The notes: generated by a model not told the origin, from the letters alone. A DNA stretch of 64,000 bases from Takakia lepidozioides (GCA_030704615.1 CM060734.1:5332001-5396000); one strand, 5' to 3'. Counted from the stretch's first letter, positions 18,435 through 47,429 are shown. Numbers and translations: made by a program.

Positions 18435-18435
18435 A

Positions 18436-18732
18436 TCATGCACGTTGTTTTCTCCTCATCTGGATGATGTTTTTGTCAAGTTGTTTGATGTCTGGAAGGG
18501 GGAAGGGAGAAGGGAGCAGCATAGAAGAATATTGGACTTGTGGTTTAAATACTGATTGAATGATAGATAACTTGGGGCGAATGGATACGGGGGATTTGAG
18601 GAGAGCAAAGCTTTTATTAGCTAATTTGGAGAGTATTGTATCTTTCTGTATTTGCCAAGTGAGAGAGGGGACCAGTTGGATACCCAGGTATGTGTAGGGC
18701 TCATCCGGGCCTTTTAAGAAAGGGAAGGCTTG
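18436..18732 (-). mobile_element. LINE RT thumb fragment, continuation of the 13870-15180 LINE
   Basis: PDEPYTYLGIQL motif; joins the 15180 break across the CAAG duplication. Confidence 0.8.
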
Positions 18733-19422
18733 TGTCGTGCGCATACATATCGCTACAAGTCAAGCCAAGTGCACCCCACGCCATGGGGAATCCACACTAC
18801 GGCGCCATAGCTAGGCGCGGTGAGGCTCAACTCGAGAAAGATGAGCCTCTCGCGCTTGCCGTGTGAAGAAACCACTCCAGGCCTAAATCTGCCTTGACCC
18901 CTTGGATTGACACTTGGGCCAATCCCAAATGTCAATATGTGAAAGCTAGCTATTTCCTAGCTAGTTTCACACTAGTGGTGAAATAACTTGACAGCTGTCG
19001 TGCGCATACATATCGCTACACAACTACATCGTTGTCCAAAACCACACAACACATGTGCACACCACACACTAGTATACCACTAGTCCACCACTAGTCCAAC
19101 CACTAGGCTGCCACTAGTCAGTCGCTAGGCTAACCACTAGGCAGTCACTAGTCCACCACAATCGCCCCCCTAGCTGGTGCTTAGGTCCCTCTAAGTCCAG
19201 ATAGCCACAAGATATGATAGTGATCGTAGCCTCACTAAGTCCTCCACCATTGTCCCTACTACACTCAAACTCGATAGATCAAGAGGCCGGGTACAAGAGT
19301 TGCCCCATCGTTAGTCGCCGTCTCTACAACCTGTGAACTTGAACCTGAGATCTCGTGTATTGACTCCTATGAGCTTTGGCCTCCTATGTCTTGTTAGCTG
19401 CCTCTAGTCATGTCCATTGCCA

Positions 19423-20748
19423 CTATCCCAAGCAGTGTGGACACAACCAATCTCTATCAGGAACCTTCTCAAGAGGTGGTGTCAAACATCCCATGTGCCA
19501 ACCTCTTGAGCATCGATCACACACCAGCATGGTGGCTGTCCCTTTGGAAGACCCACAGAGCATGCACCTTAGACCTGCAGGCACCACTTGCCAAGTTTGG
19601 GTCGACTCTGCCATCGACATTGGGAAGGTGACATGGCGCACAATTACGCACATGGTCCTTCCAAGTCATGCCATCCCGACCCTCCAAGATCAGGACCCCT
19701 GAGGGCACAACCTCTCGAACCCTCAGAATAACACGCCTTGCAGTAACATCCAGGGTCGTAGGAGCAGTTTGCTGCAAATAAACAAGTCACCAGGGCTAAA
19801 CCTCCGAACCCCAGGATGATATCCTCCACCACGTATAGTGGCATACCTCAACGTATCACGGCGTTGTGCAATGGCAAGGTTCTCAAAAGCCATGGGCATG
19901 ACTTTCTTGAATAACTCTACACGCTGATCACATGCACGTACCCACACGTCCGGATCGTCAAGGTTAAGGACTTGAGCAGTGTCCCTAAGAATGGCTGCAG
20001 GCAAATCGGCTCTTGGCCAAAGAGAAGGAAATATGGTGAGAAGGAGGCAAGTGATGCTTGTTGGTTGAACCTGTAGCCCATGGCTAACCAAGGAACCTGA
20101 AGATCCCAATCTCCTAGGTGTCCCTTCTGCAAGCCATACTTGTGCAAACCCCTCTTCACCGTTTGAACATCTCTGCAAGCCATCGGCCTCAGGTTGATCC
20201 GAGAAAGTGGTGTGTGGTGGTCTATCAAGGCTTATCACACAAAGCCTGAAACTCCCCCAAGAAACTCTCTCCCTTGGTCCGTGAGTACCTTAGCGGAAGC
20301 ACCGAATCGGCTAAGCACACGATCCAACTCAATCCACTTGGAGAAGTGCTCCACCATCACCAAACAAGATCTGTGGTGGCGAATAGTCAGTGGCAACGGT
20401 CCTGCGAAGTCAAGATCCACCTGTAGCCCAATCCCATGATTGTAAAGGATGCAACTGTGGTGTAGGGGTATTGAATGAAGCACACACCCTGTCACACACC
20501 ATGCACCTAGCCACGAACCGTTGCACCTCTGTGTGCATACTACGCCACCAATACTGCCCCTGCAGTAGATTGTGAGTGCGTCGCACTCCAAAATGCCCCA
20601 ACTCCTCATGGGCATGCCGCACTAACCGTGCACGCTGTGTTGGGTGAGGCACAATCCTCACCCGAAATCCTTCACACTCGGAGCAGGTGTATCCCCTCCA
20701 CTTGAACCTCTTGGTCGTTGCAGGATCCGAACCCTCCCTTGAAGTCAC
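19423..20748 (-). pseudogene. Integrase with C-terminal PHD finger (element 1)
   Basis: HEELGHFG...CMVC, LDFAGP, LTDQG; [37 protein letters not shown] (C4HC3). Confidence 0.9.
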
Positions 20749-20999
20749 AGTGGTGTCGTGTCTCGTGCGGAGTTAGTCCAATACAGCCGAATCATCATGT
20801 ATATCTCTGGCACCACCTGGCTATCACTAGCCTCAGGGTCCTTAGACACTCCGTCTACAGTCATCCTTGTTGTAGGTCCAACCTGACCTCCCGATGCCAA
20901 GATACACAAAAATGTAGATGCGTGCCATCCCGGCACCATCTCCTCGTCAGTCTCACCATGCCACCGAGCTCCAGTATCATCCTGCTGGCTCGTGCATGG

Positions 21000-22330
21000 A
21001 TTGCGACTCAATCCATCCACATCCGATTGCCACCAACCCGGTCGATTGACACCAACCTGAAAGTTATACTCCTGGAGTATGAGTGCCCACCGTGCAAGCT
21101 TCCCCGTAAGCTTGTCTGACTCCATCAACCACTGAGTGGCTGGTGATCAGTGACAAGGGTGAAGAGATCGCCGTATAGATAGCACCTGAAGTGTACACGG
21201 CCCACACTGCAGCTAAGCACTCTCCCTCATATGAGCTATACTTAGCCTCTGCAGCGTGTTTTGAGCGGCTAGCAATAAGCTACTACGAACTCTCTTCCCT
21301 CATCATCCACCGTGTGAGCACCGCTCCAAGCCCCAGCAGCTCCAATCCGTATGCAGTGAAAGGGGACGTCCTCGGATAGGTCGTCTCAGGATAGGGCCGA
21401 TGTCAACCTCGCTTGAGCTCTTGAAAAGCTCGTTCTTGCTCAACTTCCCACTGCCAATCCTGGTCCACCTTGGTCAGCTGGTTAGAGCCTTTGCAATGGC
21501 ACTAAATCCCTTGACAAACCGTCTATAATAGTTTGTCAACCCCATGAAGCTCGAACTTGGCTCACATCCATGGGGCGTGGAATTTGTGCAATGGCCTTAA
21601 CATTAGTCTGTTGTACCCCCAATCCTCCAGGATATATCATGTGATCCAGATACTCAAATCTGGTTGTGGAAAAAACTTGCAATTCCCCGGAATGCAACTT
21701 CAATCCGTGCGCTCTCAAGTGCTACAATACAACCTGAAGGTGTCTCTTGTGATCCTCCCCCCGTAGCACTAAAGATGATGATTGATCATTATGTAGCACC
21801 GAGCAAAGTCCATCCCCACTAGAATCCTATCCATGACTCTTTGAAACTCTGCAGGCGGCGCGTTCTTATAATGGTAAGAACCGCCACTGATATAGGCAAT
21901 CCTTGACATGCTCATTGATCCCCTAGATGTCGTCTTCTGCTTGTCTGCCTCATTGATCAGCAACTGGTGATCTCCGGATCGTAAATCCAAAGTGCTAAAG
22001 ACCTTAGCATGCCCGATGGCATCAAAGATCTCCTCTGGTGTTGGCATGGCATACTTATCGGACTGGTCTGACTATTTACAGGCCGGTAATCACCGCACTA
22101 CGTCTCTCCGTCCAATTGCCATAGACATCTTCGTGGCTGGCCTCACTGTGCGTGAAGCATACTCTCCACCAGAGAGCTCTACCAAACCTGCCCTCCCAGA
22201 GATCTTGAGTCCTCATCTGAATCAAAGACCTCTCCATGTCACTATATCTATAGGGTCTCTGAAAAGATTGGGTGTCAGTGCTAATCAATATGGATCTCTT
22301 GACCCTTCAGTGCTCCCAAGTCCTTCAAAC
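21000..22330 (-). pseudogene. RT / RNase H (element 1)
   Basis: MPTPEEIFDAIGHAKVFSTLDLRSG, NAP.AEFQRVMD, SYEGECLAAV, KLTGKLARWALILQEY. Confidence 0.9.
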
Positions 22331-22799
22331 TGAAGGGGCAAAAAGCAATCCTATAAGCTTCAGGAAACGCGTATACGTCGTCTCTCTCCTCCGGTGACAA
22401 TGGGTCCAATGCAGTCTCTCAATTGTCCTCCCTAACTGTACCTTAAGTCCAATGAGCTTAGAGGTAGAGGACGCGTCCAGTGGTTGCTATGTTTTGACAA
22501 CCTCTTGAGCAGTACTACCCTACCTGATCAGTCAATGACAAGGCATCATCCTGCCACATCATCTCTCCTCGAGGACTTCCTCAACCCAAGAAGAAAAATC
22601 CCCAACCTCATCCATCACCGCCACCTTGGCTGCCAACTCCCTCTGAACCTCGAGTACCACCACGTGTACCATGGATGCTTGCACCCCGTGGTCCTCTCAT
22701 ACTCGCCTCCACTCACTGCCTGTACCGTCTCGGTAAGCAGAGAGACCATCGAGGGAAGTGTACTCCGAACGAGTTCTGCGTTGCTCAGCCATAGCCAAG

Positions 22800-23600
22800 C
22801 TGATAATCCAGGTCACGCAATTGAGATCCATTGCTTGCCCCCAACACCTGACGATTTGTGATGCCTCGAAAGAGACGGAAACGCCTCATTGCCCGCTCAC
22901 GCGTGTCAGCATTAGGCTCCACTAACTGCTTGCAACTGAGCATCCCCACCGGAGGCCAGGGTCCACTATCCGGAAAAGGCATACGATCTCTGGGAATGTT
23001 GAGCGTGTAGGTATGCTGCCTCATGTGGCTTGACATCCAGCCTGGTTGACCACTGCCAACGGCAAACGGTCATCGTGTCTCACACGCTGAAACTGCCTCC
23101 CTATGTCCAAAATGCTATCCATGTGAGGTGTGTTGGCCGCTGCATCCCATCAAATGCACGCTTGAGCAGTGCGCATGTGGCATCAAGGTAGTCTACCATA
23201 ACCGTGGACGATGAGCCCGTGACCCCACTGTAGCTGCATCTAGCAACACTGCTGACCCAAGCCACGACCGGACTTGATGCACACTGGTCATCACCCTGGC
23301 CCGAGAATCGCCCATCAGTGGCACATTTTCCAAGATGTATGCTGGAGATACAGCTTGATGAAGCTGCAAGTGGCGCAAAACCCGCACCATCTCCCAAAAC
23401 AGACCCGACCTCGAGTCTCACAATCCATTGTCATGCCCGGCTGATGAATGCCCTTGGCAGGGCCAACCTGCCATTACTAGATCAATGGAGCCAACCCACT
23501 CCAAATCCTGCGCCCCTAGCAACGAATTGTCTGCTGGCAAGGCCTGCTGATATCCACGAACTGTAGACACCGGCAACAACTCAGGGTACTGCTGCACCAA
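22800..23600 (-). pseudogene. DNMT3-like C5 methyltransferase, motif I region deleted (element 1)
   Basis: IDLVMAGWPCQGHS (motif IV), YILENV (VI), AHRPRLW (VIII), QVLG (X); in frame with the protease in ORF 23418-24227. Confidence 0.88.
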
Positions 23601-23829
23601 CCACAATGGAGTCTGAGCAACCATGGCAGGCAACTCCGCCATACCATACATGTCATCCTGTTCTCCTGGAGGTGTGTCATCATCTGAATGAGCGTTGCCC
23701 TCTAGCAACTCTTCAGGCCAAGTCACTGCAACTGTGAATGCTGCTAGTGTCGGCATCTTGCCTCGCTGGGCAACCGCAACTCCTCCTATGAACGTCACAG
23801 GGAGCTGCACACGCCGGCCCTCCCCTGAC

Positions 23830-24227
23830 TGCCATCCAGGCCTATAGGAAGCTGACTCCTCCCAAAAATCCAGGGTGAAGCCCATGGGATACAACACTGC
23901 CCCACCAACCAGGACATCGTACAAGACCGCGTCTGTCACAATGGCCTTGGCTCGCATCACCGAGCCATCTGTAGGGTGATCCGGCCGTAGTCTGATAGCC
24001 AACTCACCCCGTGTCATACCCCAAGCTTGCTCCAATCCTCCCAAAGACATCTGTATCCGGAAAGGACAAGGCTCCATATCCGCCTCCGTGAGGCCCAAGC
24101 CTGCAATAGCAGCTCTGCCCAGCATCAATGGGTGAGCTCCCAAGTCCAACAAGACCCGCAGTGGCCGGTACCTCTTGCCTGCCGGTCCACTCAAATAGAA
24201 AATGTCATCCTGGTTGTCTAATGACAA
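23830..24227 (-). pseudogene. Retroviral-type aspartic protease (element 1)
   Basis: PLRVLLD(L)GA...YDVLVG motifs. Confidence 0.75.
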
Positions 24228-24917
24228 CTCCAGGTGTCACCATGGCGCGCTCAATGGCTGGCCTAGCTGGCAGCTCCATCAACCTGGCAGCTGCAGCTTG
24301 CCATGGTGCCGCAGTGGGAGTCTTGACCCTCAAATCCGAGGATCCCTCCGGCACTACACCTCCCACTATCTCTGCAGAAGATGAAGTAACCTCCTCACTC
24401 TCACAGAGTGTAGCTGCCAGCCTGAACACCTCAGCTGGTCTTACCCCCGGCATTGCAATCATGGTAGCCAAGAACAATGGAGCCTGGCACACAGATGTGG
24501 CCGCTCGCAGTAGCACACTAGCTGTCGTAGCCTTGGAAACACTAGGTAGTGGTGCTGCCCGTGTAGCTCTCCCCAATGGCATAGTAACCTCCGCCTCGGT
24601 AACAGTCGGGCGAGAAAAGGTGCCATGGATGGCGTCGACACTGTCTCCGCCAATGTGAATGACTGAGGAAGCCTAGCTTGACGGCTTGCCTCCCCACGCT
24701 GTGGATCCAACTCCACCTCTGCACCTCGTGGCTCAGGAACTCGTGCTGCTCCTCGAGTCACGGCTTCAGCAGATTCCACCTGCACTAGTGGTAGTGTTGC
24801 TCCGCACATGAATCCTATGCCTCCCATATCTCCTCCCTCAGGAGTAGGAGGTGGACCATCCGGCCTTGGAGCCGGTACCACCTGAGCTGTAGCCATGGCA
24901 GCGAGCCTCTGCTCTAG

Positions 24918-25283
24918 CTACTGAAGCTGGTTGGTCATGTCTTGGTCAACACCCTGACCTCCACGTCCTTGGCCATGTTGAGCTTGCCCTTGGCCTACAT
25001 CTCGTGCCTGGCCACCTCGTCCTCTCTGGGCTGCCCCACCTCGCCCCCGGCCACCATTGTTCCTTTGGAACTTGCCTGGGCGCAACTCGGGATGCAAACC
25101 ATAACACTGGGCCTCTCCATGCCCGTGCTTGCCACAATGCCCACACTGCAACTGTGCAGGCTGTGCATGTGCCGGCCCTTTGCCTCCCTCTGGGCAATCC
25201 TTCTTGACATGGGGTCCTCCACATGTCCAACACACCAACTCCGCCCGTTGTTGGCCTGCAAATGAAGGGAGAGACCCTTGCAT
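24918..25283 (-). pseudogene. gag nucleocapsid with two zinc knuckles (element 1)
   Basis: CWTCGGPHVKKDC and CGHCGKHGHGEAQC, followed by an RGG-rich tract. Confidence 0.85.
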
Positions 25284-25699
25284 CTGAGGTCATCTCTGTC
25301 CTTCCCTGAGCTTCACCTGAGCCCATTTGTTGCCTTGAGCACGTTGAGGTAGTGGTTGTACGCTCACTTGTGACCTCCCCTGCCCACTTTTTTCTCATAA
25401 TAAACAATATCTCTTCCCGGAATATAAAACAACCTCAGGTGTCTCTATACTCCACATGCTCAAAACCTCTCAAGATGACATCAATCATACAAATACTGCC
25501 ACCCCCCATCCCACACCCTCTCCATCACCCTCCACTTCAAACTCAAAACTAAATCTATTATCATCTGCCCCATCTGTTCTAACTACATACCCCATCTCCC
25601 CTAGGCCCCTTTCCATATCACACACCCATGACCATCTGGCTCCCCCTACGCCCCCCTCCCCACTTCTAGTCAACCCAGATAACCTTGACCACACCACAA

Positions 25700-26047
25700 T
25701 GATACGGAAATGGTGAAAAGAGGAGAAACCACTCTATCACGTTATATAAGTCAAGCCAATGGCACCTTTGCTAAAGGACTCCACCATACAGACCTCACCC
25801 ACTCTCTATCTCAAGTACTAGAGCTATGGCGGTGAGAGAGGCCTCGGGAGGCTCGACTAGAAGAAGATGAGCCTGCCTACATCTCACGTGGAGATAACCT
25901 CCCCACGTCCCAAGTGAGGTTCGCCACCTCACTTGGCACATGGAACCAAATGAAGTCCCAATGCCAACAAAATACAAATATAAATGTATAATGTCCTAAT
26001 TAGTTAGAAATAACTATTTCTAACTAATCACAAACAAAACCATGACA
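25700..26047 (-). repeat. 3' terminal repeat (segment B) of element 2
   Basis: TGTCATGG...CCGTATCA on the minus strand; about 97% identical to 35623-35970. Confidence 0.92.
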
Positions 26048-26134
26048 GCTGTCGTGCACCTAAGCATCGTGCCACAACATACATCGCTGTCCAACCACAC
26101 TTCCTAGCATATAGTCCTAGAAAGCCACGCCACA

Positions 26135-26146
26135 ATCGCCCCCCTA
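26135..26146 (-). promoter_or_regulatory. Polypurine-tract-like AGGGGGGCGAT followed by TG
   Basis: Same motif in element 1 at 19161-19171; both are followed by TGTGG on the minus strand. Confidence 0.6.
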
Positions 26147-26391
26147 GCTGGTGATTAGGTCCCTCTAACACCGGATAGCTTGCAAGTATCCACCCCAATA
26201 AGATCATCGTTTGGTCTTCAATCGCACAAGTCCCAACTCCTGAAGTCGATAGATCAAGAGGTCGGGTGCAAACGTAGCCCCATCGTTAGTCGCCTTCATG
26301 CAATCCATGATCTTCAGTTGAGTATCCATGGCATTGAAGCCCCACTAGCTAGACCTTGGATCACTTGTCCGCCTCACCATTGTCATGCCCA

Positions 26392-27853
<1,462 letters not shown>

Positions 27854-27862
27854 GCACGTTAT

Positions 27863-29338
27863 CTACATGACCAATCGCATGGGATTGACCTGAGTTCCCA
27901 TTGCTAGAATGCACAAAAAGGCCGATGCATGCCATCCTGGCACCATCTCCTCATCCGTCTCACCATGCCACCGAGCTCCAGTATCATCATGCTCGCTCGT
28001 GCATGGATTACGACTCAATCCATCTGCATCCCGATTGACAATACCGGCTCGATGCACCACCTGGAAGTCGTACTCTTGAAGCATAAGTGCCCACCGTGCA
28101 AGCTTCCCTGTAAGCTTGTCTGACTCCATCAACCACTTCAATGGTTGGTGATCCGTGACAAGGGTGAAGAGATTGCCATAGAGGTAGCATCTGAAATGTG
28201 CCACTGCCCATACCGCAGCTAGACACTCCCCTTCATAGGAACTATACTTCGCCTCGGCATCATTGTTCGAGCGGCTAGCATATGCCACTACGAACTCTCT
28301 TCCCTCATCATCCACCTGTGTAAGCACTGCTCCAATCCCCAGCATACTCCAATCCGTATGTAGCTGGAAAGGCCGCCCCCGAATAGGCCGCCTCAGAATA
28401 GGTGCAGAAGTCAATCGAGCCTTGAGTTCCTCAAAGGCTTCCTCCTGCTCCTCCTCCCACTGCCACTCCTGACCCACCTTGGTCAACTTGGTAAGAGCCT
28501 TTGCAATGCTGCTAAATCCCTTGACAAACGTCGATAGTAGTTTTGTCAATCCCATGAAAGCACGAACTCTGCTCACATCCATGGGGCGTGGAATGCATGC
28601 AATGGCCTCCACCTTTATCTGTTGAACAACCAATCCTCCAGGGTATATCATGTGGCCCAGATACTCAATCTGATTGTGGAAGAACTTGCACTTTCCGGGG
28701 TGCAGTTTCAACCCGTGCGCTCTCAAGCGCTCAAATACCACCTGAAGGTGTCTCTCAGGCTCCTCAACCGTAGCACTAAAGACAATGATACCATCAATGT
28801 AGCACCGGGCGAAGTCTAGCCCGCGAATCCTATCCATGACCCTCTGAAACTCTGCAGGAGCATTCTTCAACCCAAACGGTAAGAACCGCCATTGGTACAA
28901 ACAATCATTCCCATGTTGGTCAATCCCCCAGAATGTCGTCTTTTGCTTGTCAGCCTCTTTGATTGGCAACTGGTGGTAACCGGATCGCAAGTCCAATGTG
29001 CTAAACACCTTTGCATGCCCAATGGCATCAAAGATCTCCTCTGGAGTTGGCATGGCATATCTATCGGACTTAGTCTGACGGTTCACATGGCGATAGTCCC
29101 CACACATCCTTCTTTCTGTCCAATTGCCATAGATATCCTTCTTAGCTCACATCACCGTTGCCGAGGCATACTCCCCGCCTGACAACTCCACCAATCCAGC
29201 TTCGAACAACTCCATAGTCCGTGACTGGATCAATGACCTCTCCATGTCACTATACCGGTAGGGCCTTCGAAAGATTGGCGTGTCACTTGCCAAATCAATA
29301 CGAATCTCTTGACCCTTCAAACTCCCCAAATCCTTCAA
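27863..29338 (-). pseudogene. Reverse transcriptase / RNase H (element 2)
   Basis: CGDYR..N, LDLRSGYHQ, LPFGLKNAP, YIDG (mutated YIDD), LHTDWS, YEGECLA, TDHQPL. Confidence 0.95.
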
Positions 29339-29550
29339 ACCGAAGGCAAAGCAATTTCTATAAGCCCTTAGAAATTGCTGGATCCTCCGTCTCTCTCCTC
29401 CGGTGACTGTAGGTCCAACATCTGGTTCCCAATTGTCCTCGGTGACTGCAACCTTGGGTACACCAGGCTTGGAGGTAGGAGACGAATCCTTTGGTTGCTA
29501 GATAGCAACCTCTTGGGCCTTGTCCGCCCAATCTGACTGTGGCGTAGCCT

Positions 29551-31032
29551 TCACTTGCTCCGCCATAGCCACCTTTGGAGAACATCCTCTGAGCAAGAAA
29601 CATTCTCAACCTCTTCAAAAACCTTGGTCACCTTGGCCTCCAACTGATCCTCAGTCCATGGCTCTCCCCACTCCTCATACTGCTGCTTGAGAGATCCAAT
29701 GACTCTCTCTTTGTGCATATCATCCCACATCTGCCATGGGTGTTTGCAACCCACGATCATATGCTCACCCCCACTCACTGCCTCAACTGTCCCGGTTGGC
29801 AGGGATGATGCACTATCCAATGGGAGTGCAGAAGTAGCCATCAATGCTTGCAATCTCCGTTGCTCAGCCATGCACAAGCCAATGACCCATGTCAAGCAAT
29901 TTAGATCCATTGCTTGACCCAACACTTGGCGGCGTGATGCCTCTGACAGAGCTGGCACCTCTGTAGTGCCGGTGGCAAATCCCATTGCCCACTCTCGCTC
30001 ATCCGCATTGGGCTCCACCAATTGTTGTAGCACACTATCCCAAATCAACCTAGGACCATTGTGTCGAAAAGCATGAGACGAGGGAAAGCTCATGAGCGTA
30101 GGCAAGGCCGCACGTGGCTGCCCCACTCGATTGACCACTGTTAGAGGTGGACGGTCATCATGTCGTACCCTTTGTGGTTGCCTTCCTTGGTCCAAAATGC
30201 TTTCAACCATGAGATTGGGTGACCGTTGAATGGAATCATATGCTCTCTTGATCAGCTCTGGTGGTGCAAGATTGGTCCACCACAATCGAGGTCGATGCGC
30301 GCCTGATCCCACCGCTGCTGCATCCAATAGCACCGCCGATCCAATCCAAGACTGCACCTGATGCACACTGGCCATAACCCTCGCCCGAGAATCCCCCATA
30401 AGAGGAACATTCTCCAAGATATAGCCTAGAGGTTGCACTTGTCTCGTCTGCAAGTCCCGCAACAGTCGCAACATCTCCCAAAACAAATGTGATCGTGCAT
30501 CATGCAAGTCATTTCCATGACTTGCGGGAGAGTGTCCTTGGCAAGGCCATCCCGCTATCACCAAGTCAATTGCACCATGCCGGCCCAAATCATCCGCCCC
30601 CAGCAAGGTAATGTCTGCTGGCAAGGCCTTTTGGTACCCTTGAATTGCTGAGAGAGACAACAACTCAGGATACCGGTGTGTGAGCAAGGCGATGTGGTGC
30701 ATATAAATACGTTGAGCTATCTCATCCTTCTCCACATACAAGTACTTGCGTACTTTAATCCCTGCTTGCAACATTCCTGCAAGCCCAGTTTTCATGCCTC
30801 CAAACAGGTCTAGCAAACAAATTCCTGAGTCAGGTTGTTGCCAGGTAATGGGCACCGTGTCCAAAGGAGCTAACTCAGGAGGTCCAGGTGATGTCACTGA
30901 ACTCCCCTCACTCATCAATGGAAAGGCCTCCTGCCATGCTTGGTGCAGACACTCGCCTGCTACTCGATGCAAATTCCCAACCGTACCCCAAAGTAGAATA
31001 TGCACAGGCACATGAGGAAGCAAATCAGCCAA
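29551..31032 (-). CDS. DNMT3-like DNA (cytosine-5) methyltransferase domain of the pol polyprotein, uninterrupted
   Basis: Motifs in canonical order: I LDLFGG, II YVEKD, IV IAGWPCQG, VI ILENV, VIII AHRPRLWWTN, X RRQVLGQAMD. Confidence 0.93.
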   Translation of the reverse strand: MADLLPHVPVHILLWGTVGNLHRVAGECLHQAWQEAFPLMSEGSSVTSPGPPELAPLDTVPITWQQPDSGICLLDLFGGMKTGLAGMLQAGIKVRKYLYVEKDEIAQRIYMHHIALLTHRYPELLSLSAIQGYQKALPADITLLGADDLGRHGAIDLVIAGWPCQGHSPASHGNDLHDARSHLFWEMLRLLRDLQTRQVQPLGYILENVPLMGDSRARVMASVHQVQSWIGSAVLLDAAAVGSGAHRPRLWWTNLAPPELIKRAYDSIQRSPNLMVESILDQGRQPQRVRHDDRPPLTVVNRVGQPRAALPTLMSFPSSHAFRHNGPRLIWDSVLQQLVEPNADEREWAMGFATGTTEVPALSEASRRQVLGQAMDLNCLTWVIGLCMAEQRRLQALMATSALPLDSASSLPTGTVEAVSGGEHMIVGCKHPWQMWDDMHKERVIGSLKQQYEEWGEPWTEDQLEAKVTKVFEEVENVSCSEDVLQRWLWRSK

Positions 31033-31493
31033 TTGTCTGTCCTCATTAGGTGATGGCCTATCATCTGCATGGCTATTGCCCTGGCTGCACCTTGCTTTGC
31101 AGCACCACCCACTGGCATTTCCCGAGCCACACCAACTCTCCCCACTGGCACTCGTGGTTCTACCTCTAACACACTTGGGCGAGCGGGTACCATCGATGGC
31201 GTAGTTGGCACTGTCTCAGCCAATGTGAAAGACTGTGGAAGCCTTATCTGTCGATTTGCTTCCCCTCTTTGTGGATCAAAATCCACATCTGCTCCTCTTG
31301 GCTCAAGAGCACGGGCTGTTGCTTGAGTGACAGCAGATGCAGAGTCCACATGCAATGGTCCTGCAAGTGCGGCTCCACACATGAAGCCCATACCAATCTG
31401 GTCTTCCCTAGGCATAGGAGGTTGTGCAGGTGGGGCTTGAACCTCAGGCCTTGGAGCTGGTGCAACATGCGTAGTGGCCATGGTAGTAAGACG

Positions 31494-33050
31494 TCACTCT
31501 AGCTGGGCAAGCTTATCCACCATGTCTTGGTCATGACCTTGATCTTGACCTTGTGCTCCCTGGTTTTGATTATGACCTCCACCGCAACCTCTGCCTCCTC
31601 TACCTCTCTGGACCACATTGCCTCGTCCTCGGCCACCATTGTTCCTTTGGAACTGGCCTGGCCGTAGCTCAGGATGCAAGTCATAACAATGGGCCTCCTC
31701 ATGCCCATACTTGCCACAATGCCCGCACTGTAGTTGTGTAGGCTGTGCCTGTGCCGGCCCTTTGCCTCTCTCTCTCCGGGCAATCTCTCTTAACATGGGG
31801 TCCTCCACAATCCCAACATGTCACACCCAACTGTTGTTGGCCTGAGAATGAAGGAAATGACCTCTGCAATTGAGATCATCTTTGTCCTTCCCTGGGCTTC
31901 ACCTAAGCCCCCTGGTTGCCTTGAGCACGTTGGGGTAGTGGTTGTTGTTGGCTAGGAGCCCCACTTCATTGTGTCTCCTTACCAAACCCCACCATGACTA
32001 CTCACTCCTCCACCATATTGAGCTCTATCCGCTCTGCCAGCAAAAACACGTTTGCTAAGGTGGGTTGGTCTACTTGTAGGAGAGTTGCATCCCGCACCCT
32101 TCTCCTCAGCTCCTTGTCCAATACCCCATACCAGAATTGGACTGCTTGAGCTTCCGTAACTCATTGGGTCACATTTATCAATCGCCTCATGCGTGTGTAA
32201 GCCTCCCTCAAACTCTCAGTAGGCCTCCGCTGGAACTCTTGCAAGTTCCACAACTTCTCTGTCCTTATTCCCTGGTAGTTTCTCCTCAACTCCTCGAAGA
32301 ACTCCACAACTGGGTTAAAGGCAGGCATGGGTGCTGGTGCTGCAGCAGGAGCTTGAGTGGATTTCCCAGCTTCATCTTTACTTGTCCCACTACTAGTGCT
32401 TGCAGTTGGGGATGTTGGTGTAGCTGCTGGTGTCGCCGTTGCTCTTGTGCCTCTAGTGATGGAGATATAGTCAGGTGACCAATATTGTCGCCACTCCTCA
32501 ATCTCCACCTCATTTCCCCGCCTAAACTCATGGTAGTCATCCATAGGCGGCCCCTCAAGGTGCTGAAACAGCCCCTTCCACGCCATAAAAGACGTAAACA
32601 GTTGTGGATTGCGCATTTGCTGCAAATCACACCAACTATCAAACTCCTATATGAAATCATTAAGCTTGATGGTGTCCACAGCTCCCGAGTACCGACATGG
32701 CTCTTTGGTAGCTCCATACATTTCCTCCATCGTATCCCACAACAATGGCACGGAAATGGCTTGTACCCTCGGCGAGAATCCTCCTAATTCTGAGTCTGAA
32801 CCTTCCTCAAAAGACACTGAAGGTGAAGGTGGCCTAAACCGCACACCTCGTCTTGTATACCCACTAGTATCGCTGGTGCTCGTACCGGCACTCTCCTCAG
32901 CAACTGGTGGCACCTCCGTGATGAAAACTCACACTCAAACCGGCTATCAACTTGTCTCTAATCCCCCTTTCCACAAGGTACCGGGTAGTGAACCTGTTGC
33001 GGCTTATGGTTTGGAATACTAGGTTCGTATTCTAAACCTGCACTTGCACC
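31494..33050 (-). pseudogene. gag (capsid plus zinc knuckles), element 2
   Basis: LQEFQRRPTESLREAYTR (major homology region), CGHCGKYGHEEAHC; frameshifted. Confidence 0.88.
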
Positions 33051-33619
33051 TGCATCCACCACAGGCACTCCTATGGTCTGCTGATCATCAACCCAGCCTC
33101 ACCATAAGAGAAACAATGATGCTCTGCTGGTCATCACCCCAACCTCACCACCGACAGCACGCTCTAGGATTGGCCGGCCACAATATTTCCGGCACAACCA
33201 CCTATAAAAGCAAGCGCCCAAACTCAAACAACAATGACTCCCACAGCTTAAATCAATCGATCTCCTTGCGGCTTCAATAAACCTGCAAGATGGCCAAGTC
33301 TCCAAACTAGCTCTGCCTCCGCTTACGGAAATTTTTTGGCCTACAAGAATGATGGAAGACTATAGAGAAGGGAAGCTAAAGCAATCTCTAAGCCCAGAAT
33401 GCTCTCATCCCATTACTCCCCCTATCTTCACACTCACTCTTGCTCAAGCAATAGATAAGACTATCCTTAAATAACCTCTCAAATAACTCTCAAGAGCCCT
33501 CAAATTATTGCCATGAACTTCTGAAATCTGCCCTCAATCAGCCCCTAACATAGACCCACCGAGGTTCAAGAAGTTCGCAAACTTGGACTCTAAACAGTCC
33601 ACCAAAAGACCCTAGGTGC

Positions 33620-34240
33620 CCGCCAATTTGTGGCCTCCAAGGTCTTCAACCAGCCCTCACAATGGCTCCACAAGCCTGCCAAGTATTGGCCTCCAATGAC
33701 CACCAACAGTCCTCCAACAACCCTTAAAGAAGCTCCTCAAATCTGCCGAGTATTGGCCTCCAATGACCTCCAACAGTCCTCCAACAGCCCTTAAGAAGCT
33801 CCTCAAATCTCCGAGTATTTGCCTCCAAGGACCTCCAACAGTCCTCCTACAACCCTTAAGAAGCTCCTCAAATCTGCCAAGTATTGGCCTCCAAGGACCT
33901 CCAATAGTCCCCCAAAGAGCTCTTAGAAACCTCCATAAGCCTGCCCAATATGGGCCTCCAAGGACCCCCAATCATCCTCCATCCAGCCCTCACAAGGCTC
34001 CACAGGCCTGCCAAACATTGGCCTCAAGGACCCCAAATAATCCTTCAAACAGCCCCAAGCAGGCTCCACAAGCCTGCAAGATATTGGCTTCAATATACCC
34101 CAAATAGTCCTCAAAGCAGGCCCCAATACCTGTAAGATATTGGCCTCAATAGACCCCAAATAGTCCTCAAAGCAGGCCCCAATCCCTGCAAGATATTGGC
34201 CTCAATAGACCCCAAATAGTCCTCAAAGCAGGCCCCATAA
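33620..34240. repeat. Minisatellite with TATTGGCCTC core (~53-63 bp units) in the element 2 leader
   Basis: About 10 recurrences of (A/G)TATTGGCCTC(C)AA...AGTCCTC. Confidence 0.85.
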
Positions 34241-34269
34241 CGCTCCAAAAATATCCATAGTCAGTCGAT

Positions 34270-34741
34270 TTTTCATCCGTCACTGACCAAAATTCATCCA
34301 AAACCGCGATTTCTCATCCGCAGGTCCGATACTTCATCCACCACGATAGTTCATCCGTCGGTGCGATATTTCATCCGCTGGCACAGTTTCATCCGTTGCC
34401 GCGATTTTTCATCCGATGGCACGATAGTTCATCCGCTCACGCAGTTTCATCCGTCGAAGTGATTTTTCATCCGATAGCGCGATAGTTCATCCGCTGATGA
34501 GATTTCATCCACTGACGCAGTTTCATCCGTCCCCGTAATTTTTCATCCGATAGCGTGATAGTTCATCTGCTGACTTGATTTCATCCGCTGGCACAGTTTC
34601 ATCCGTTGCCGTGATTTTTCATCTGATAGCGTGATAGTTCATCCGATGCCGAGATTTCATCCGTTGGCGCAGTTTCATCCATTGCAACCGATTCTCATCC
34701 AAGAGTGCCAATTTTCATCCACTGGCTCAATAGTTCATCCG
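34270..34741. repeat. Array of ~25 TTCATCC cores at 18-20 bp period with variable CpG-rich linkers
   Basis: Read directly from sequence; 3-4-unit higher-order repeats are visible. Confidence 0.9.
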
Positions 34742-34777
34742 AAGGGACAATGGTGGTGCTCCCAACTCTGGGGCAAT

Positions 34778-34888
34778 GTTCCCACGAGTTCCCAAGGAGT
34801 TCCCAAGCGTTCTCATGCGTTCCCTCGAATTCCCAAGGAGTTCACACGCGTTCCGAAGCGTTCCCACGCGTTCCCAAACTAGGGTTTT
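34778..34888. repeat. GTTCCCA 11-12 bp periodic array ending in a telo-box-like TAGGGTTTT
   Basis: About 9 GTTCC(C/G) cores. Confidence 0.75.
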
Positions 34889-35622
34889 CGCCGCTTTGCC
34901 TCTGCGATTGCTGCAACGAGCTATGGCTTCTATGGAGCAACCAGAGGTGTTGTTCTTGGTTTCTTGAGCATCAATAGACCACCAAGAGTGCCTCTAACTC
35001 CCTGAGCAAGCTATTTGCCACATAACAAACTCTCTTTCTCTATAGAACTTATTGAAATAAGCATAGAACAAGCTATTGAGCTTTCTATGGCATACCCTCT
35101 TCTAGCCATCACATGCACTCATAGTGCTTCTTTCCATGGCCATAGTGCACCTCTTAGAGCTCCTAATCCAGCACTGCACTTGCCACTTCCATAGACATGC
35201 TCTTCCCAAGCTTGGGATTGAAACCCCAACTCAAAGCATGCTCTACAAATACACTATTCTGCCCCAAAGAGAAATCAGATGTCTACCTCCACTCATAGCT
35301 CTCCTAAGCTTGAAGTTGAAGACTCCCACAAGCTGAAACCATGCTCCACACATGCACCGCTTGCTCCCTTAACACCTGAGCTCTTCTTGAACTCCTCAAA
35401 CCCTGCAACACTTGCAGAACAAGAGTTTTTTCACAAGCTCTCAAACTTTTCAATGGGCTCTCCTTGAAGACCTCTTCTTGTACATAAACACCACAAGACT
35501 TTCCTCTTGCAAACCCTGCAACACCTTGTAACTTAAGAGCTATTTACCAAGCTCTCTTCCACACACAAGTGATAACTATGCTAACACCTTGCACTCATAG
35601 ATGTAAGCAGGTCTTCTTCTAG

Positions 35623-35970
35623 TGATACGGAAATGGTGAAAAGAGGAGAAACCACTCTATCACGTTATATAAGTCAAGCCAATGGCACCTTTGCTAAAGG
35701 TCTCCACCATACGGACCTCACCCACTCTCCATTTCAAGTACTAGAGCTATGGCGGCGAGAGAGGCCTCGGGAGGCTCGACTAGAAGAAGACGAGCCTGCC
35801 TACGTCTCACGTGGAGATAACCTCCCCTCGTCCCAAGTGAGGTTCGTCACCTCACTTGGCACATGGAACCAAATGAAGTTCCAATGCCAACAAAATACAA
35901 ATATAAATGTATAATGTCCTAATTAGTTAGAAATAACTATTTCTAACTAATCACAAACAAAACCATGACA
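35623..35970 (-). repeat. 5' terminal repeat (segment B) of element 2
   Basis: Direct repeat of 25700-26047. Confidence 0.92.
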
Positions 35971-37060
35971 GCTTTAAAGCATTCGTGTATAGGGGGTATG
36001 GGGATTGTAAAGTTCTTATGAAGTGCGGAGATGCTGGCATTGTGGATGCCACCTCGTGTACCAGCAGTGATGACAGTTAACGGGCCAGTGGACCATCCGC
36101 GTTGGCGGATAGCTAGGATAAGCGGAGCATTTTTTTGACGTTTTTCTAGGGTGGAGGTGCTAGGGTAGCGGGGTCATGGTAGTATGTGAGTTCAATGAAG
36201 TGTATGGTGAGGTTGGGAGATGGGGCATTGTGTGGCGTGGTGTATATGGGTAGACCTTGTACCAGTAGGATGTCCGGGGATAGTTGGGCAGGGTAGGTGG
36301 CGCCGACAGGTGCATGGAAGTAGTCATGTTGGTACAGTGTGATCCGGAGGTCTGCCTTAGTAGGTGCCGGCATTGATAAGTGAGAACCAACGAATTTCAA
36401 GGCGTTGTAGGAGAAGTTTATGGATGTGCCAGACAACATGATTATGTCGGGCAATACGGAGACCATGGATGACGAGGTGGGAGCATTGGCTAAGGAGGTG
36501 GGGCTATGTGTCACGGACCATGTGGGTGTGGGTGCAGAGTGAACAATTCGGGGAGGGGTAGAGGCATGGCTAGAAGGTGTGTTTGCGTTGGTGGCCCATG
36601 GATTGAGCATATCTAAATTTGAGGGTTTGTCGTATTTGTGCATCAGTAGCGACTTTGGTGTGCCAGAAGTGGTCGGACAATTTATGGTGTAGTATAGTGG
36701 ATTGCGTCCATTTCTGGATGTGTCTCTTGGTATGACTGGTAGAGGCGGAAGCTTGTTTGCTAGCCTCCCAAGTAAGTACGGTTAAAAGGTTGCGGATAGG
36801 TCGGGACTCAGGGGGCTCGGGAACGGGGTATATGAGCCAGAAGGGGTGGGTGTGTGTGATGTGGATGGGGTCTGTTGTGGGATCTACGGGGGGCCGGGTG
36901 GCCCCCTGTTGGGCTAGGAGGTCGGCTGCATCGTTGCCAGAGATACCAGTATGTGAGCGGACTTTGATAAGATAAATTGGTTGGTTGGAGCCACTGATAG
37001 TGTGAAGTCCTCTGCTGGGGTTTAGTTGAAACACGAGTACCCTCCAAATGGCATATCCTA
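35971..37060 (-). mobile_element. Non-LTR retrotransposon C-terminus: RNase H, CCHC finger, restriction-like endonuclease
   Basis: IKVRSHTGISGNDAADLLA (RNase H), CSLC...DT*PHLLSQC...IARHN, SPDILLVQG...IHFIELTY (PD-D/E type). Confidence 0.82.
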
Positions 37061-38149
37061 ATGTGGGGAGTCTTATGGCCATTCTAGCTTGCTGCTTCTG
37101 CTGGCTAAATGAACATTTGTATTACATTCTCAAGAAGACAAAATTGCAGTACTTGTTGGAATTGTGACGAATGATACAAGACTATATGAGGTGCCAGCAT
37201 TGAAGGTGGCTGCTCTCCGCTTCACTGAAGGTGGCTAAACTTATATTAGCGACAACTATGGAAGGCAAAAGCTTGTGAGTGGCATGGTAAGCCCCTAACC
37301 TGTTCCTAAGCACTTAGCAATAGATCGCGTAGCCCAAAAACCACTTGAAGTATCTGTGTAGGAAGGGGCTATTAAATTTTCAACATGGCTGAAGCCAACA
37401 TCACTGGTACTTCAGCACGACAGCACCATCAAGATACCTTCCTCTCTTTTTTGTGAGAAGATGTGACCGTAGCCATTGTTCTGCTATCTCTCATTTGTTC
37501 ATATAGTGCAAGGGCAGCAGGTCACTTGCCAACATTGTTGTTTGTTATGGTGACTTTGTCAAAGCTAAAATTGTATCAAATGATGTGGGAAAGGGTGCAA
37601 CCCAACCACATCATGCTCATTTGTATTTGCAATGTATGTGTGGGCTTGGTAGTTCTGGAAAAGTAGGGAGAAAAGGTACAGAAGTCCATGGTGACATCAT
37701 GAAGCTGAAAATTGGTATATCTTAGGCATGGGTCAACGTTGAAACATAGAACAATGTGGGCTAGAGTTCTTAAGCTCACTCACAATGGTGGGACCTTAGC
37801 CTTGACGAGGTGAGCTTTCTTAAGCCTTCTCTGAGGAAAGCGTGAGGAAGGTTGGCACTGTGAAGTGAATTTGTTGGTATGTTGAGATTGGGTTTCAATC
37901 TCGAGCTTCAGCATTGAGAGGGCTCTTGTCATGGCAAGAGCAGGGCTGGAACATGAGCTAAGAGGTGCGGCAAGGCCATGGAATGTGCACCTAGGGTTTC
38001 AGAGCAGAAGAGATCTTGCACCACAAGAGGAGTGTCTTGTGGCTGGAAATGTAAGCCTTAGGGTTTCAGGAGCTTGGCAAAGGCTGTGGAGTGCTTAGTC
38101 TTGTCTTAGAGAGCATCAAGGAGCCAAGGAGCCAAGATACGTGGCTGAT

Positions 38150-39535: not shown

Positions 39536-40449
39536 CTAATTCCATAGACCAAAATAGTTCAAGATGTCAGTGTATGAGAAGAGCACATGTGTGAATGTAT
39601 AATATGTAAAAAGAGCAGTTCAGTGTCATGGTTGCATGAAGAAAACAAATGAATTTGGATAGTCAACTAATTCCATGAATATCTTTGTCTTTCAAAAAGC
39701 TTACAACTTGGAACAGAATACAGGCCTGAGCATCCCGACAGACGACCTCCGACCACCTACGCCGGCGCATATGACACATATGTGCAACCAACTCAAAATT
39801 TGACAAGATTTGAGGCCCTTGACGAAATTTTTGCTCAAGGAGCTCCAAGCATATGCGCCAGTGCATACCATGGAAGGGAGGTTGTAGCCAAACATACAGG
39901 AGCACCTTGAAAGATCAAACTAGGCCTATGGAAGCATGAGGAGTTGTGGAGGTGGCAACGTAGAAGCTTTGAGATACTTGAATATTGTGATCAACCAAAA
40001 TAGGGAAGGTTCCCCAAGCGTCTGCGCCGACGGAGGTGGCAGCCTCGACACTTTGGAGCTTACGTAACACAAGGAATATACAACAAAAAACCAAGCTCCA
40101 AGCATCTCCGCCGGCGGAGATGCTTGCATGAGGTTCCTGAAACCTAGGAGCTAAGCAAAAAAAGATTGTGCTCAATAGGTATGCGCCGGCGGATATGGCA
40201 GCCCAGCCCGCTCAGAGCATCAACAACTTATGAGAATGCGGAGAAACAAAAGAGATGGAAGGGGGGGAGAACTTCCTGAAATATGTGAGCAGCCCTGCTG
40301 CACGGGTCTGCGTTGACAGAATACCTTGCTGATTTCCTCACAGCCGCCATAGCTCGGTGCAAAGAAACCTAGAGTCCAAGAGACACAAACCCTAGCTTGG
40401 CGTGGCTAAACCCCTTGGATAAATGGCTAAATTGTCATGAGTGACCATG

Positions 40450-40940
40450 GATGGGGCTGTGGCGGGCTGTGACAGGCTGTGCCCTATGGCCTGTGGGGCT
40501 GTGATAGGCTGTGGCGGGCTGTGACGGGCTGTGACAGGCTGTGAGGGGCTTTGACAGGCTGTGGTGGGCTGTGACAGGCTGTGCCCTATGGCCTGTCGGG
40601 CTGTGACGGGCTGTGACAGGCTGTGACAGGCTATGGCCTTTGGGGCTGTGACCCCTGTGACCTGTGTAGGGCTGTGACAGGCTGTGCCTGTGGCCTTTGG
40701 GGCTGTGACCCCTGTGACCTGTGTAGGGCTATGACAGGCTGTGCCTGTGGCCTTTGGGGCTGTGACCGGCTGTGACCGGCTGTGAGGGACTGTGACAGGC
40801 TGTGACCTGTGGCCTTGGGGGCTGTGACAGACTGTGAGGGGATGTGACAGGCTGTGACCTGTGGCCTGTGGCCTGTGGCCTGTGTGGGGTTGTGACGGTT
40901 GTGACCAGTGATCTGTGTGGGCCTGTGCTGGTCTGTGGTG
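40450..40940. repeat. GGCTGTG(A/G)C 10-bp-type minisatellite
   Basis: Dozens of CTGTG cores; lies upstream of the third gag copy. Confidence 0.9.
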
Positions 40941-41364
40941 GCCCGTGTTGACATGTGGACGGCCTATGCTAACTCGTGGAGGCACTGGTGGACTGCCTGA
41001 GGACTAGCATGCGGTCTTGAAGGCCAAATTTTGAAACTCGTGGAAGGCGGTTTGAGGAGTATCTTCATGATATTTCCATGGTCATGCAAGTGAGGGAAGA
41101 GAGGAGAAAAAAAGTGTTGGGATGAGGGCATGTTGGGGTTAGGCATTGCTTTAGCTTCTCTTCCTCGTAGTTTTCCACTCTCTCATTAGGCCAAGACCTT
41201 TCCGTAGGTGGAGGCAAGAGTTAGTCCGGGTTTGGGTTGGGGTGTCCTTGCAGGAGCAACACCGTGGAATTGTTTTTGGTGTGGGGGAGTTGTCGTTCTG
41301 ATTTCTTGTGTTTGGATCCCCTTCATACCAGCATGCTTGACTGTGCGCCATGTTAGTTTTGTGT

Positions 41365-42653
41365 GGGCGCTTGTTTTTATAGGTGATTGGTCCGGATTTG
41401 ATCACCAGCCAGTCCTAGAGCATGCTGTCGATGGTGAGGCTGGGGTGATGACCAGTCAGACCATCATTGTTTCTCCTGTGGTGAGGTTGGAGGTGATGAC
41501 CAGCCAACCATAGGAGTGCTTGCGGTGGATGCAGGTGCAGGTGTAGGCTATGTTAGGAACCTAGTATTCCAAACCATAAGCCGCAACAGGTTCTCTACCC
41601 GGTTACCTTGTGGAGAGGGGGTTAGGGACATGTTCATGACCGGTTGAGTGATAGTTTGTCAACACGGAGGTACCACTAGTTGCTGGGGACAGTGCCGGTT
41701 CGAGCACTAGTGATACTAGTGGGTACACGAGACGAGGTGTGCGGTTTAGGCCACCTTCACCTCCTGTGTCTTCTACGGAAGGTTCTGATTCGGATTGTGA
41801 ATCAGGAGGACTCACACCGGCGGGCAAGTTGTTTCCTTGCCATTGTTGTGGGACACATGGAGGAGATGTATGGAGCTACCAAGGGGCCACGAAGGTACTC
41901 TGGGGCGGTGGGCACCATCGAGTTGGATGATTTTATCCAAGAGTTTGATAGTTGGTGTGATTTGCAGCAAATGCGCAATCCACAACTATTTACGCCTTTT
42001 ATGGCATGGAATGGGCTATTTCAGCACCTTGAGGGGCCGCCTATGGATGATTACCATGAGTTCAGGCGGGGGCATGAGGTTGAGATCGAGGAGTGGAGGA
42101 TGTATTGGTCACCCGACTATGTCTCCATCACTAGGGGCACTAGAGCCACGAGGGCATTGGCTACACATGCCGCTGCACCGGCAGCTTCAGCAAGCAGCAG
42201 TGGGACTGGTGGTACGTAGCTACGACGACGTCCACCCAAGCCACTACCACACCAGCACTAGTACCCGTGTCTGCCTTCAACCCTGTTGTGGAGTTCTTCG
42301 AAGAGTTGAGAGGGAACTACCAAGGGGTGAGGACAGAGAAGTTGCGGAGCTTGCAAGAGTTCCAACGGAAGCCTACTGAGAGCTTGAGGGAGGCTTTCAC
42401 TCGCATGAGGCGCTTAATAAATGTAAGTCAAGGGGTTACGGAAGCTCAGGCAGTCCAATTCTGGTATGGGATATTGGACAAGGAGCTGAGGAGAAGGGTG
42501 CGGGATGCAACTCTCCTACAAGCGACCCAACCCACCTTAGCAAATGTGTTTTTGCTGGCAGAGCGGATAGAACTCAACATGGTGGAGGAACGAGTGGTCA
42601 TGGTAGGATTTGCTAAGGAGACACCACGGGGTAGTGGTGCTCCTAGCCAGTAG
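41365..42653 (+). mobile_element. Third copy of the DNMT-Gypsy family: leader plus gag, truncated
   Basis: Colinear with 33220-31980 of element 2 (MQQMRNPQLFT, EGPPMDDYHEF, LQEFQRKPTESLREAFTR). Confidence 0.9.
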
Positions 42654-47330: not shown

Positions 47331-47429
47331 ACTCCAGACTCTTAAGTACATATATCCATCTCATCCTTTGCTCTGTTCAAACTGATCAATAACAGAGTTC
47401 TTCAGTGTGGAGCTTTCTTCAGGCCACTT

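Follow-up and report, generated by a model that had tools for sequence, protein, structure and literature searches.

What does a retrotransposon gain from carrying an enzyme of the class that silences it? The question has stood since 2018, and until now the sole example from the plant lineage has been an alga whose enzyme gave a negative yeast assay. It is raised again by a stretch of 64,000 nucleotides (nt) from Takakia lepidozioides (CM060734.1:5332001-5396000; hereafter the window, in which positions are counted from its start). The window contains two decayed Ty3/gypsy elements, elements 1 and 2, in which a non-permuted, DNMT3-like cytosine-5 (C5) methyltransferase domain (DNMT) follows the protease. 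Comparisons with relatives support the DNMT as a trait of the family that is under purifying selection, as opposed to a local insertion. The concept of such an element is already published; what is added here is the land-plant range, expression that is probably linked to Gag, the structure of the ends and, in Marchantia, unbroken open reading frames (ORFs); these make the question testable.

The methyltransferase domain

A preliminary description of this locus had reported an uninterrupted C5 methyltransferase with canonical motif order in element 2, and we found the same. The ORF at 29551-31215 (minus strand) is open for 554 amino acids (aa), and its product matches the Pfam profile DNA_methylase (PF00145) with an E-value of 1.6e-11 and 44.6 bits (cut-off 22). 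Motifs I (30810), II (30738), III (30618), IV (PC, 30552), VI (ENV, 30417), VIII (30297), IX (30003) and X (29922) follow in canonical order, unlike those of the permuted DRM enzymes. In element 1, the protease region and the DNMT share a single frame (ORF 23418-24236, minus strand), which reaches motif IV and spans the deletion at 23600/23601 by which motifs I-II were lost; the shared frame and the loss of motif I near 23600 had both been described correctly. The protease region of element 1 obtained no Pfam score, while that of the relatives L036 and P0382 did. Element 2 has lost its protease, as had been stated, but the junction lies at about 31083-31170, not at 31035.

Element 2, 29881-30828, minus strand: DNMT3-like C5 methyltransferase domain, motifs I-X, no stop (PF00145, motifs, fold)
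Element 2, 31083-31170, minus strand: deletion junction, about 295 ORF1 residues including the protease gone (tblastn of P0222 skips residues 532-827)
Element 2, 31170-32862, minus strand: gag with zinc knuckle; stops and a frameshift
Element 1, 22766-23600, minus strand: DNMT domain without motifs I-II; stops and frameshifts
Element 1, 23601-24236, minus strand: aspartic protease region, 45-51% identical to that of natural relatives
Element 1, 24240-25359, minus strand: 3' part of gag; 5' part gone

By sequence and predicted fold, DNMT3 is the C5 family nearest to the domain, in agreement with its earlier assignment as DNMT3-type and non-permuted. When the element 2 protein was searched against the sequences of the PDB, the top 29 matches were DNMT3A, DNMT3B and DNMT3C (best E-value 6e-11). 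With a profile of 29 sequences, the top 29 were again DNMT3A/B/C (4e-21), followed by DRM (1e-9), HaeIII (2e-6) and HhaI (9e-6); DRM2 aligned to profile positions 47-172 only, at its C-terminus, and DNMT2-type RNA enzymes scored far lower than DNMT3. An AlphaFold model (pLDDT 79.6) had DNMT3A as its first Foldseek match (E-value 1e-18, target TM-score 0.80); the identity between DNMT3A and the element domain is about 22%. Among 262 unique full-length domains, the catalytic Cys is present in 260, the Glu of ENV and the motif II acid in all, and motif VIII has its second Arg in 261. The domain has the non-permuted catalytic region of Physcomitrella PpDNMT3b, for which CG and CHH have been described as sites of de novo methylation (PMC6453930), and of human DNMT3A. 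Unlike these cellular enzymes, it is intronless, lies within a polyprotein and has neither PWWP nor ADD.

A search of the ESM Atlas gave nothing beyond generic C5-methylase clusters. Six weak bacterial-type methyltransferases in viral contigs were rejected as relatives (27-36% identity).

Relatives and selection

The domain might be a passenger, either a piece of a host DNMT3 captured at this locus or one carried neutrally by the family. This explanation has in its favor that both window copies are dead, broken by frameshifts and stops, and that one lacks motifs I-II. However, of 286 JGI metagenome stretches that encode a relative, 80 were kept, and in all 46 of these that are at least 6 kb long the retrotransposon domains stand beside the DNMT in the same order. 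The order gag, protease (PR), DNMT, reverse transcriptase (RT), RNase H (RH), integrase (INT), PHD finger is whole in natural copies such as L036. The preliminary description had assembled this order from the two window copies; the order stands, but the copies are not halves of one sequence. They are 76% identical in the DNA of pol, with synonymous sites near saturation, and by this comparison belong to different subfamilies.

Among named proteins, the nearest (55-67% identity) come from Marchantia polymorpha, M. paleacea, Calypogeia, Riccia and Sphagnum, as expected of what had been described as a land-plant element. M. polymorpha has an 18-member cluster (90% identity) containing unbroken ORFs of about 1280 aa for gag, protease and DNMT, and the Marchantia ORFs P0122, P0204, P0211 and P0212 end after the DNMT and have all tested motifs. 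These ORFs bring the question into a model plant with methylomes and mutants. In the available text of a methylome paper on Marchantia, the DNA methyltransferase genes are given as five, with no mention of DNMT3 (PMC5784723). In Takakia itself, 87,278 contigs from one run match elements 1 and 2, DNMT included; their summed depths (about 1e5-8e5, against 61 for a unique-flank contig) do not represent a copy number.

More widely, 549 cluster representatives at 50% identity were obtained (E <= 1e-30). Among 475 relative proteins, a set enriched by the queries used and not a census, 457 have the domain: 73 are of a PR-DNMT type, 202 of an RH-DNMT-INT type and 182 are too short to tell. The RH-DNMT-INT type is named from chlorophytes, and the PR-DNMT type also occurs in Closterium. 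In phylogenetic trees of 59 and 52 sequences, which contain element-borne domains only, with 28 RH-type proteins sampled at random and a Gypsy RT-RNase H without DNMT from the window as outgroup, the PR-DNMT elements are grouped both by DNMT (support 0.998) and by RT (0.873), and element 2 is sister to Marchantia, Calypogeia and Sphagnum-type copies. With relatives in liverworts, Sphagnum, Closterium and chlorophytes, the capture of the DNMT by Gypsy elements is likely to be old. The chlorophyte range, with the DNMT elsewhere in Pol, would change the picture from a capture in one lineage to an ancient lineage within which the domain has changed place.

The ratio of nonsynonymous to synonymous substitution rates (dN/dS) was examined in 15 pairs, two of which were saturated for the DNMT. 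It was 0.10-0.15 in seven of 14 comparable pairs, namely elements 1/2 (0.11, with dS near saturation), element 2 against three loci, and the L033/L034/L036 pairs (L034/L036, 0.13 with dS of 0.26; the L033 pairs, 0.12 and 0.10), and 0.20-0.21 in two pairs. The protease gave similar values (0.10-0.15). In four comparisons between young dead copies (L009/L022, L071 pairs) it was 0.32-0.48, an unfavorable result, but such a rise to 0.3-0.5 is expected once young copies have died. The lone locus or neutral evolution that the preliminary description had named as possible outcomes were therefore not what was found. The constant position in the loci, dN/dS of about 0.1 and the residue conservation refute the passenger explanation for the family; the congruent RT and DNMT trees and the breadth of the clusters also weigh against it, and we regard it as highly improbable.

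In the large chlorophyte sister group (Haematococcus, Chromochloris, Monoraphidium, Hariotina and Scenedesmus; P0163, P0281, P0310, P0313, P0322, P0400 and about 200 further proteins), RNase H is followed by the DNMT and the DNMT by the integrase; many of these proteins have Glu where Pro would precede the catalytic Cys, and the domain often escapes detection by Pfam. The PR-DNMT type of Closterium (Zygnematophyceae) comprises P0419, P0373, P0420, P0444 and P0394. The Marchantia and Sphagnum gene models P0127, P0140, P0153, P0162 and P0167 appear to be spliced across the stop of the first ORF, joining the DNMT to RT or integrase; they are likely to be annotation artefacts that give the elements the look of host genes. 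Elements of this kind may be mistaken for host methyltransferase genes, and programs that find long terminal repeats (LTRs) would miss them.

Layout of the open reading frames

The DNMT had been placed between protease and RT. Rather than belonging to a single unbroken Pol ORF, it closes the first ORF, ahead of an in-frame stop. In the cleanest copy, L036, ORF1 of 1369 aa (gag, protease and DNMT) is followed by one stop and, in the same frame, by ORF2 (1047 aa), which encodes RT, RNase H, integrase and PHD; the stop is kept at the same boundary in L033, L012 and L009. In element 2, the stop at 29551 follows a frameshift, and ORF1 of the family ends with the TAG at 29500-29498. At this position, TAG CAA CCA is shared by elements 1 and 2.

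Element 2, 29492-29500, minus strand: ORF1 stop, predicted readthrough context TAG CAA CCA
Element 2, 26392-29497, minus strand: ORF2 with RT, RNase H, integrase (HHCC and core) and PHD finger; two stops and a frameshift
Element 1, 22481-22489, minus strand: ORF1 stop, predicted readthrough context TAG CAA CCA
Element 1, 19423-22486, minus strand: RT-RNase H-integrase-PHD, heavily broken

The sequence CAR YYA after UAG is the readthrough signal of tobacco mosaic virus (PMC2754532). In 58 sequences with the boundary found, the stop context was strict CARYYA in eight and relaxed in 36, giving CAR-YY after the stop in 44; another stop was present in eight and none in six. Since the strict motif encodes three different dipeptides (QP, QS or QL), nucleotides are what is kept. 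From these contexts, Pol is probably produced by UAG readthrough, with the DNMT made at Gag levels. Several points weigh against this. Of the 44 context matches, 36 are not the strict motif, and many are repeated contigs of one Sphagnum-type family with an ATG after the stop, at which reinitiation is possible. Furthermore, 14 of the 58 boundaries, mostly in the L071-L085 clade, have another stop or none. In the sister elements P0382 and P0389 and in Closterium P0419, the DNMT does share an ORF with RT and RNase H; the arrangement of P0419 is that described for Klebsormidium.

Ends, priming and integration

The preliminary description had named an LTR retrotransposon with terminal repeats. Rather than ordinary LTRs, we found split direct repeats, A1...B1-A2-B2. 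In element 2, the polypurine tract (PPT) precedes B1, not A2, and B1 joins A2 via the palindrome CA-GC-TG; the ordinary LTR pair was rejected because no PPT precedes A2 and no primer-binding site (PBS) of the tRNA type follows A1. Gag-PR-RT-RH-INT with a DDE integrase, PBS, PPT, TG...CA ends and a 4-bp target duplication are all present as in Ty3/gypsy elements, while a pair of identical LTRs, delimited at the ends of the element by PBS and PPT, was not found. The rve integrase and the 4-bp duplications also led us to reject a DIRS/PAT tyrosine-recombinase element.

Element 2, 35623-35970, minus strand: 5' repeat A1, 348 bp, TG...CA (repeat comparison, 10 differences to A2)
Element 2, 35780-35791, minus strand: predicted self-primer, 12 nt within A1, complementary to the PBS (1 of 5000 shuffles matched)
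Element 2, 35611-35622, minus strand: PBS adjoining A1 (complementarity to the A1 site)
Element 2, 33030-35610, minus strand: long 5' leader with two tandem-repeat arrays (units of about 67 and 76 bp)
Element 2, 26136-26149, minus strand: PPT adjoining B1
Element 2, 26050-26135, minus strand: repeat B1 (joint 26135/35623, A to B start, in other copies)
Element 2, 26043-26054, no strand: palindromic B1/A2 junction CA-GC-TG, predicted integrase attachment site
Element 2, 25700-26047, minus strand: repeat A2
Element 2, 25689-25699, minus strand: B2 remnant, rest lost (10 of 11 nt equal the start of B1)
Element 1, 18733-19175, minus strand: 3' end with PPT 19162-19175, B1 18996-19161, GC, shortened A2 from 18993, last 25 bp of B2, then CAAG
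Element 1, 15181-15523, plus strand: likely own A1 15181-15511, self-primer 15335-15346, PBS 15512-15523; CAAG before; inverted relative to the body

The A-to-B joint of element 2 recurs in other copies of the species, and the contig L051 has the complete A1...B1-A2-B2 structure with AAGG on both sides. The B/A junction was found within two mismatches in eight of 25 elements with enough 3' sequence (chance about 0.003 each). A shorter form, A...B, accounts for 12 of 14 informative B ends, representing about nine distinct insertions, many of them Sphagnum-type, and also has 4-bp duplications (L029, L039). Target duplications of 4 bp are exact in three of four two-ended contigs, with three of four bases matching in the fourth, and element 1 has CAAG/CAAG; that of element 2 is unreadable because B2 is cut short.

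The primer appears to come from the element itself. The 12 nt after A1 pair perfectly with a site within A1 in element 2 (1 of 5000 A1 shuffles), element 1 also pairs perfectly, and L051 pairs over 16 nt, with all three sequences different; the predicted folds have z-scores of -4.2 and -5.5. In a scan of 22 sequences with enough leader, the match was tied to the start of A in four (element 2, L045, L049 and L051), and 9 nt of the match are kept in L009. We infer that reverse transcription is self-primed. Tf1/Tj1 and plant Tcn1 likewise have a PBS complementary to a site in their own 5' repeat, and in Tj1 a stop at the Gag end is also needed; unlike the elements described here, they have ordinary LTRs and chromodomains (PMC4600332, PMC6317226).

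With A ending at the PBS and B beginning at the PPT, the cDNA from normal reverse transcription would carry B+A at each end. The integrated forms may be permutations of B+A-ended cDNA opened at the B/A palindrome, with the A-to-B joint as the join of the cDNA ends. Taken together, the split repeats, the self-primer, the PPT, the internal CA-GC-TG site and the 4-bp duplications point to integration from end-joined cDNA. Foamy-virus integrase acts on two-LTR circle junctions and similarly cuts a palindrome inside continuous double-stranded DNA (PMC1180852); however, that palindrome is the joint of the cDNA ends, whereas here the predicted cut site lies within the repeat and the end joint is kept after integration. 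Two points are unfavorable to this interpretation. The A-B-A...B form, which a symmetric two-LTR-circle model predicts, was found in none of 14 contigs with an A start, and the A...B copies could arise later by recombination between B repeats. If integration does proceed from end-joined cDNA, the end structure would be natural evidence for a DDE integrase that uses an internal site on such DNA, a matter disputed for retroviral two-LTR circles.

The two A repeats of element 2 have 10 differences over 348 bp (2.9% divergence), and over 25700-26050 and 35623-35973 the identity is 97.2%. The shared part of the element 1 repeats has four substitutions and nine gap columns in 246. At a substitution rate near 1e-8 per site per year, these divergences point to both insertions within the last few million years. 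The family had been described as recently active: the repeats are indeed about 97% identical, but this value gives the age of an insertion and does not demonstrate activity today, and both copies are dead. Assembly error is not needed as a source of the lesions; 2.9% divergence predicts about 100 changes over 7 kb.

The A1 of element 1 is probably the inverted copy at 15181-15511, because CAAG flanks both this copy and the B2 end at 18733, with RT sequence of a long interspersed nuclear element (LINE) on both sides: LINE RT reaches 15180, and LINE-like sequence with a YLG motif follows 18732. Judging from the window sequence, a later inversion of about 7 kb is likely to have flipped the body of element 1. 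LINE pieces lie at 14271-15180 (plus), 18436-18732 (minus) and 25360-25690 (plus), element 1 having been inserted in the RT region of that LINE.

Two contigs (L039 and L040) represent a miniature derivative, in which part of A and the PBS are followed directly by B, without coding sequence. At L014:1676-2014, a lone A repeat, with no PBS or B after it, is inserted upstream of the protease of another copy.

Relation to described elements

The nearest described element is KnitGypsy-Dnmt3 of Klebsormidium nitens (de Mendoza et al. 2018, PMC5890265). It shares the Gypsy domain set, an intronless non-rearranged Dnmt3-related domain with the key residues, purifying selection (Ka/Ks below 0.2) and DIRS-like repeats in which A1 and A2 flank the ORFs and two B repeats flank A2; here, this structure is complete in L051, and B2 is shortened in elements 1 and 2. 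However, its DNMT is in the ORF of RT and RNase H, whereas in the present clade an in-frame stop lies between DNMT and RT. It was called an acquisition of the K. nitens lineage, and the available species table lacks Marchantia and Sphagnum; the text of that account, so far as available, does not describe self-priming, readthrough, an internal attachment site or a PHD finger. No protein named K. nitens was among the relatives returned by our protein searches. Because KnitGypsy-Dnmt3 has its DNMT in the RT ORF, the window elements are a variant of the same kind, not members of that family.

SymbioDIRS-Dnmt3 of Symbiodinium is also a retrotransposon-borne DNMT3 with split direct repeats, and its de novo CG methylation was shown in yeast (PMC5890265); it has a tyrosine recombinase, in contrast to the DDE integrase, PPT and 4-bp duplications found here. 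Gypsy-7a_cRei of the green alga Chlamydomonas has a Gypsy polyprotein with a PHD finger, but a DNMT is not among its listed domains in the available text (PMC9940879). The consulted part of the REXdb paper does not mention PHD, methyltransferase or Marchantia, and later papers mention DNMT-bearing Gypsy elements only as 'streptophytes (Gypsy-DNMT3)'. We found no paper on DNMT-bearing Gypsy elements in land plants or chlorophytes, and nothing on the A...B-A-B end structure beyond the 2018 figure legend, in a search that did not extend to subscription journals, Repbase Reports, theses, bioRxiv supplements or the 2018 paper's main supplement.

Possible role of the methyltransferase

We consider it fairly probable that the DNMT acts in cis within the particle, methylating the new cDNA before integration. 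In such a cycle, UAG readthrough would yield Pol, and the DNMT would be made and packaged at Gag levels, probably to be freed by the protease. Self-primed reverse transcription would produce cDNA with B+A at each end, in which the integrase would cut the internal CA-GC-TG site, not the cDNA ends. A single cut of end-joined cDNA, similar to a two-LTR circle, would give A...B-A-B, the only form that keeps the 3' A copy; cuts at both sites, or a one-LTR circle, would give A...B. The DNMT would mark CG, and perhaps CH, sites of this cDNA, and the new copy would arrive methylated. The best solved matches of the PHD finger are CHD4, PHD1 of KDM5B, DPF3, KDM5A and UHRF1, fingers that read unmethylated H3K4, and it would probably steer the new copy to chromatin with this mark.

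A precedent exists in the retrotransposon DNMT3s of Symbiodinium, which methylate CG in yeast (PMC5890265); for these elements, methylation of the cDNA in cis has been proposed and in part demonstrated. Some observations weigh against methylation of the cDNA. The Klebsormidium enzyme produced no methylation in yeast, although its authors call the result inconclusive (PMC5890265), and CpG and CHG depletion in the elements gave no footprint of self-methylation: the ratio of observed to expected CpG is 0.37-0.55 in the elements, 0.50 in the window and 0.33-0.73 in neighboring DNMT-less elements. The DNMT of element 2 is itself probably impaired, with private substitutions in motif I (Lys at position 5, which occurs in none of 47 PR-DNMT-type domains) and motif IX (Trp), and of the chlorophyte type only 52 of 170 retain the Pro that precedes the catalytic Cys.

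The same negative yeast result and missing CpG footprint would fit an alternative in which the domain is kept for another job, either methylation of packaged RNA or, as a protein of the particle, binding and holding of the cDNA ends. RNA methylation has been raised for LINE-borne DNMTs (PMC5890265), and the location at the end of Gag fits a structural role. However, the catalytic set for C5 methylation of DNA, including the Glu of ENV and both Arg of motif VIII, is nearly invariant in the 262 domains, and the scores of DNMT2-type RNA enzymes lie far below those of DNMT3; we think this job unlikely.

Another possibility is that the DNMT enters the nucleus with the integration complex and acts mainly on host chromatin, that is, the insertion site, its surroundings or rival elements, and not mainly on the cDNA. 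The integrase carries a PHD finger, which may be likened to the PHD-like ADD reader of animal DNMT3; the chlorophyte type has the DNMT fused directly to the integrase (the 202 RH-DNMT-INT proteins); and output at Gag levels would far exceed the need of one cDNA. In the present elements, however, the DNMT is on the Gag side of the stop, moved away from the integrase, and this action on chromatin also seems improbable to us.

Combining methylation of the cDNA with the other features, we tentatively suggest, as a proposal more doubtful than cis methylation itself, an ancient, green-plant-wide Gypsy clade with a DNMT3 packaged at Gag levels, self-priming, and end-joined cDNA opened at an internal palindrome by a DDE integrase. 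The DNMT would mark that DNA and might also protect the B1/A2 attachment site in the style of restriction-modification; the intact B1/A2 site of integrated copies holds a conserved CG. If this is true, bryophytes would have a source of de novo DNA methylation that is carried by elements and has been overlooked.

Other sequences in the window

Pfam matches in the window were to transposon proteins only (46 ORFs scanned). A third gag copy, previously noted at 41.4-42.7 kb, was found at 41361-42649 (plus) and is 82.6% identical to that of element 2.

Third copy, 41113-42649, plus strand: truncated, end of leader and gag only

The tandem arrays at 33598-34730 and 40435-40950, in the leaders of elements 2 and 3, have different units. 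The remaining sequences are the following.

5792-6418, minus strand: piggyBac-like DDE_Tnp_1_7 match
17970-18460, minus strand: Gypsy RT fragment
36146-37121, minus strand: LINE 3' end in the 5' flank of element 2, RNase H match (PF00075, E-value 3.5e-4)
47380-48747, plus strand: LINE RT
59872-62035, plus strand: Gypsy RT-RNase H without DNMT

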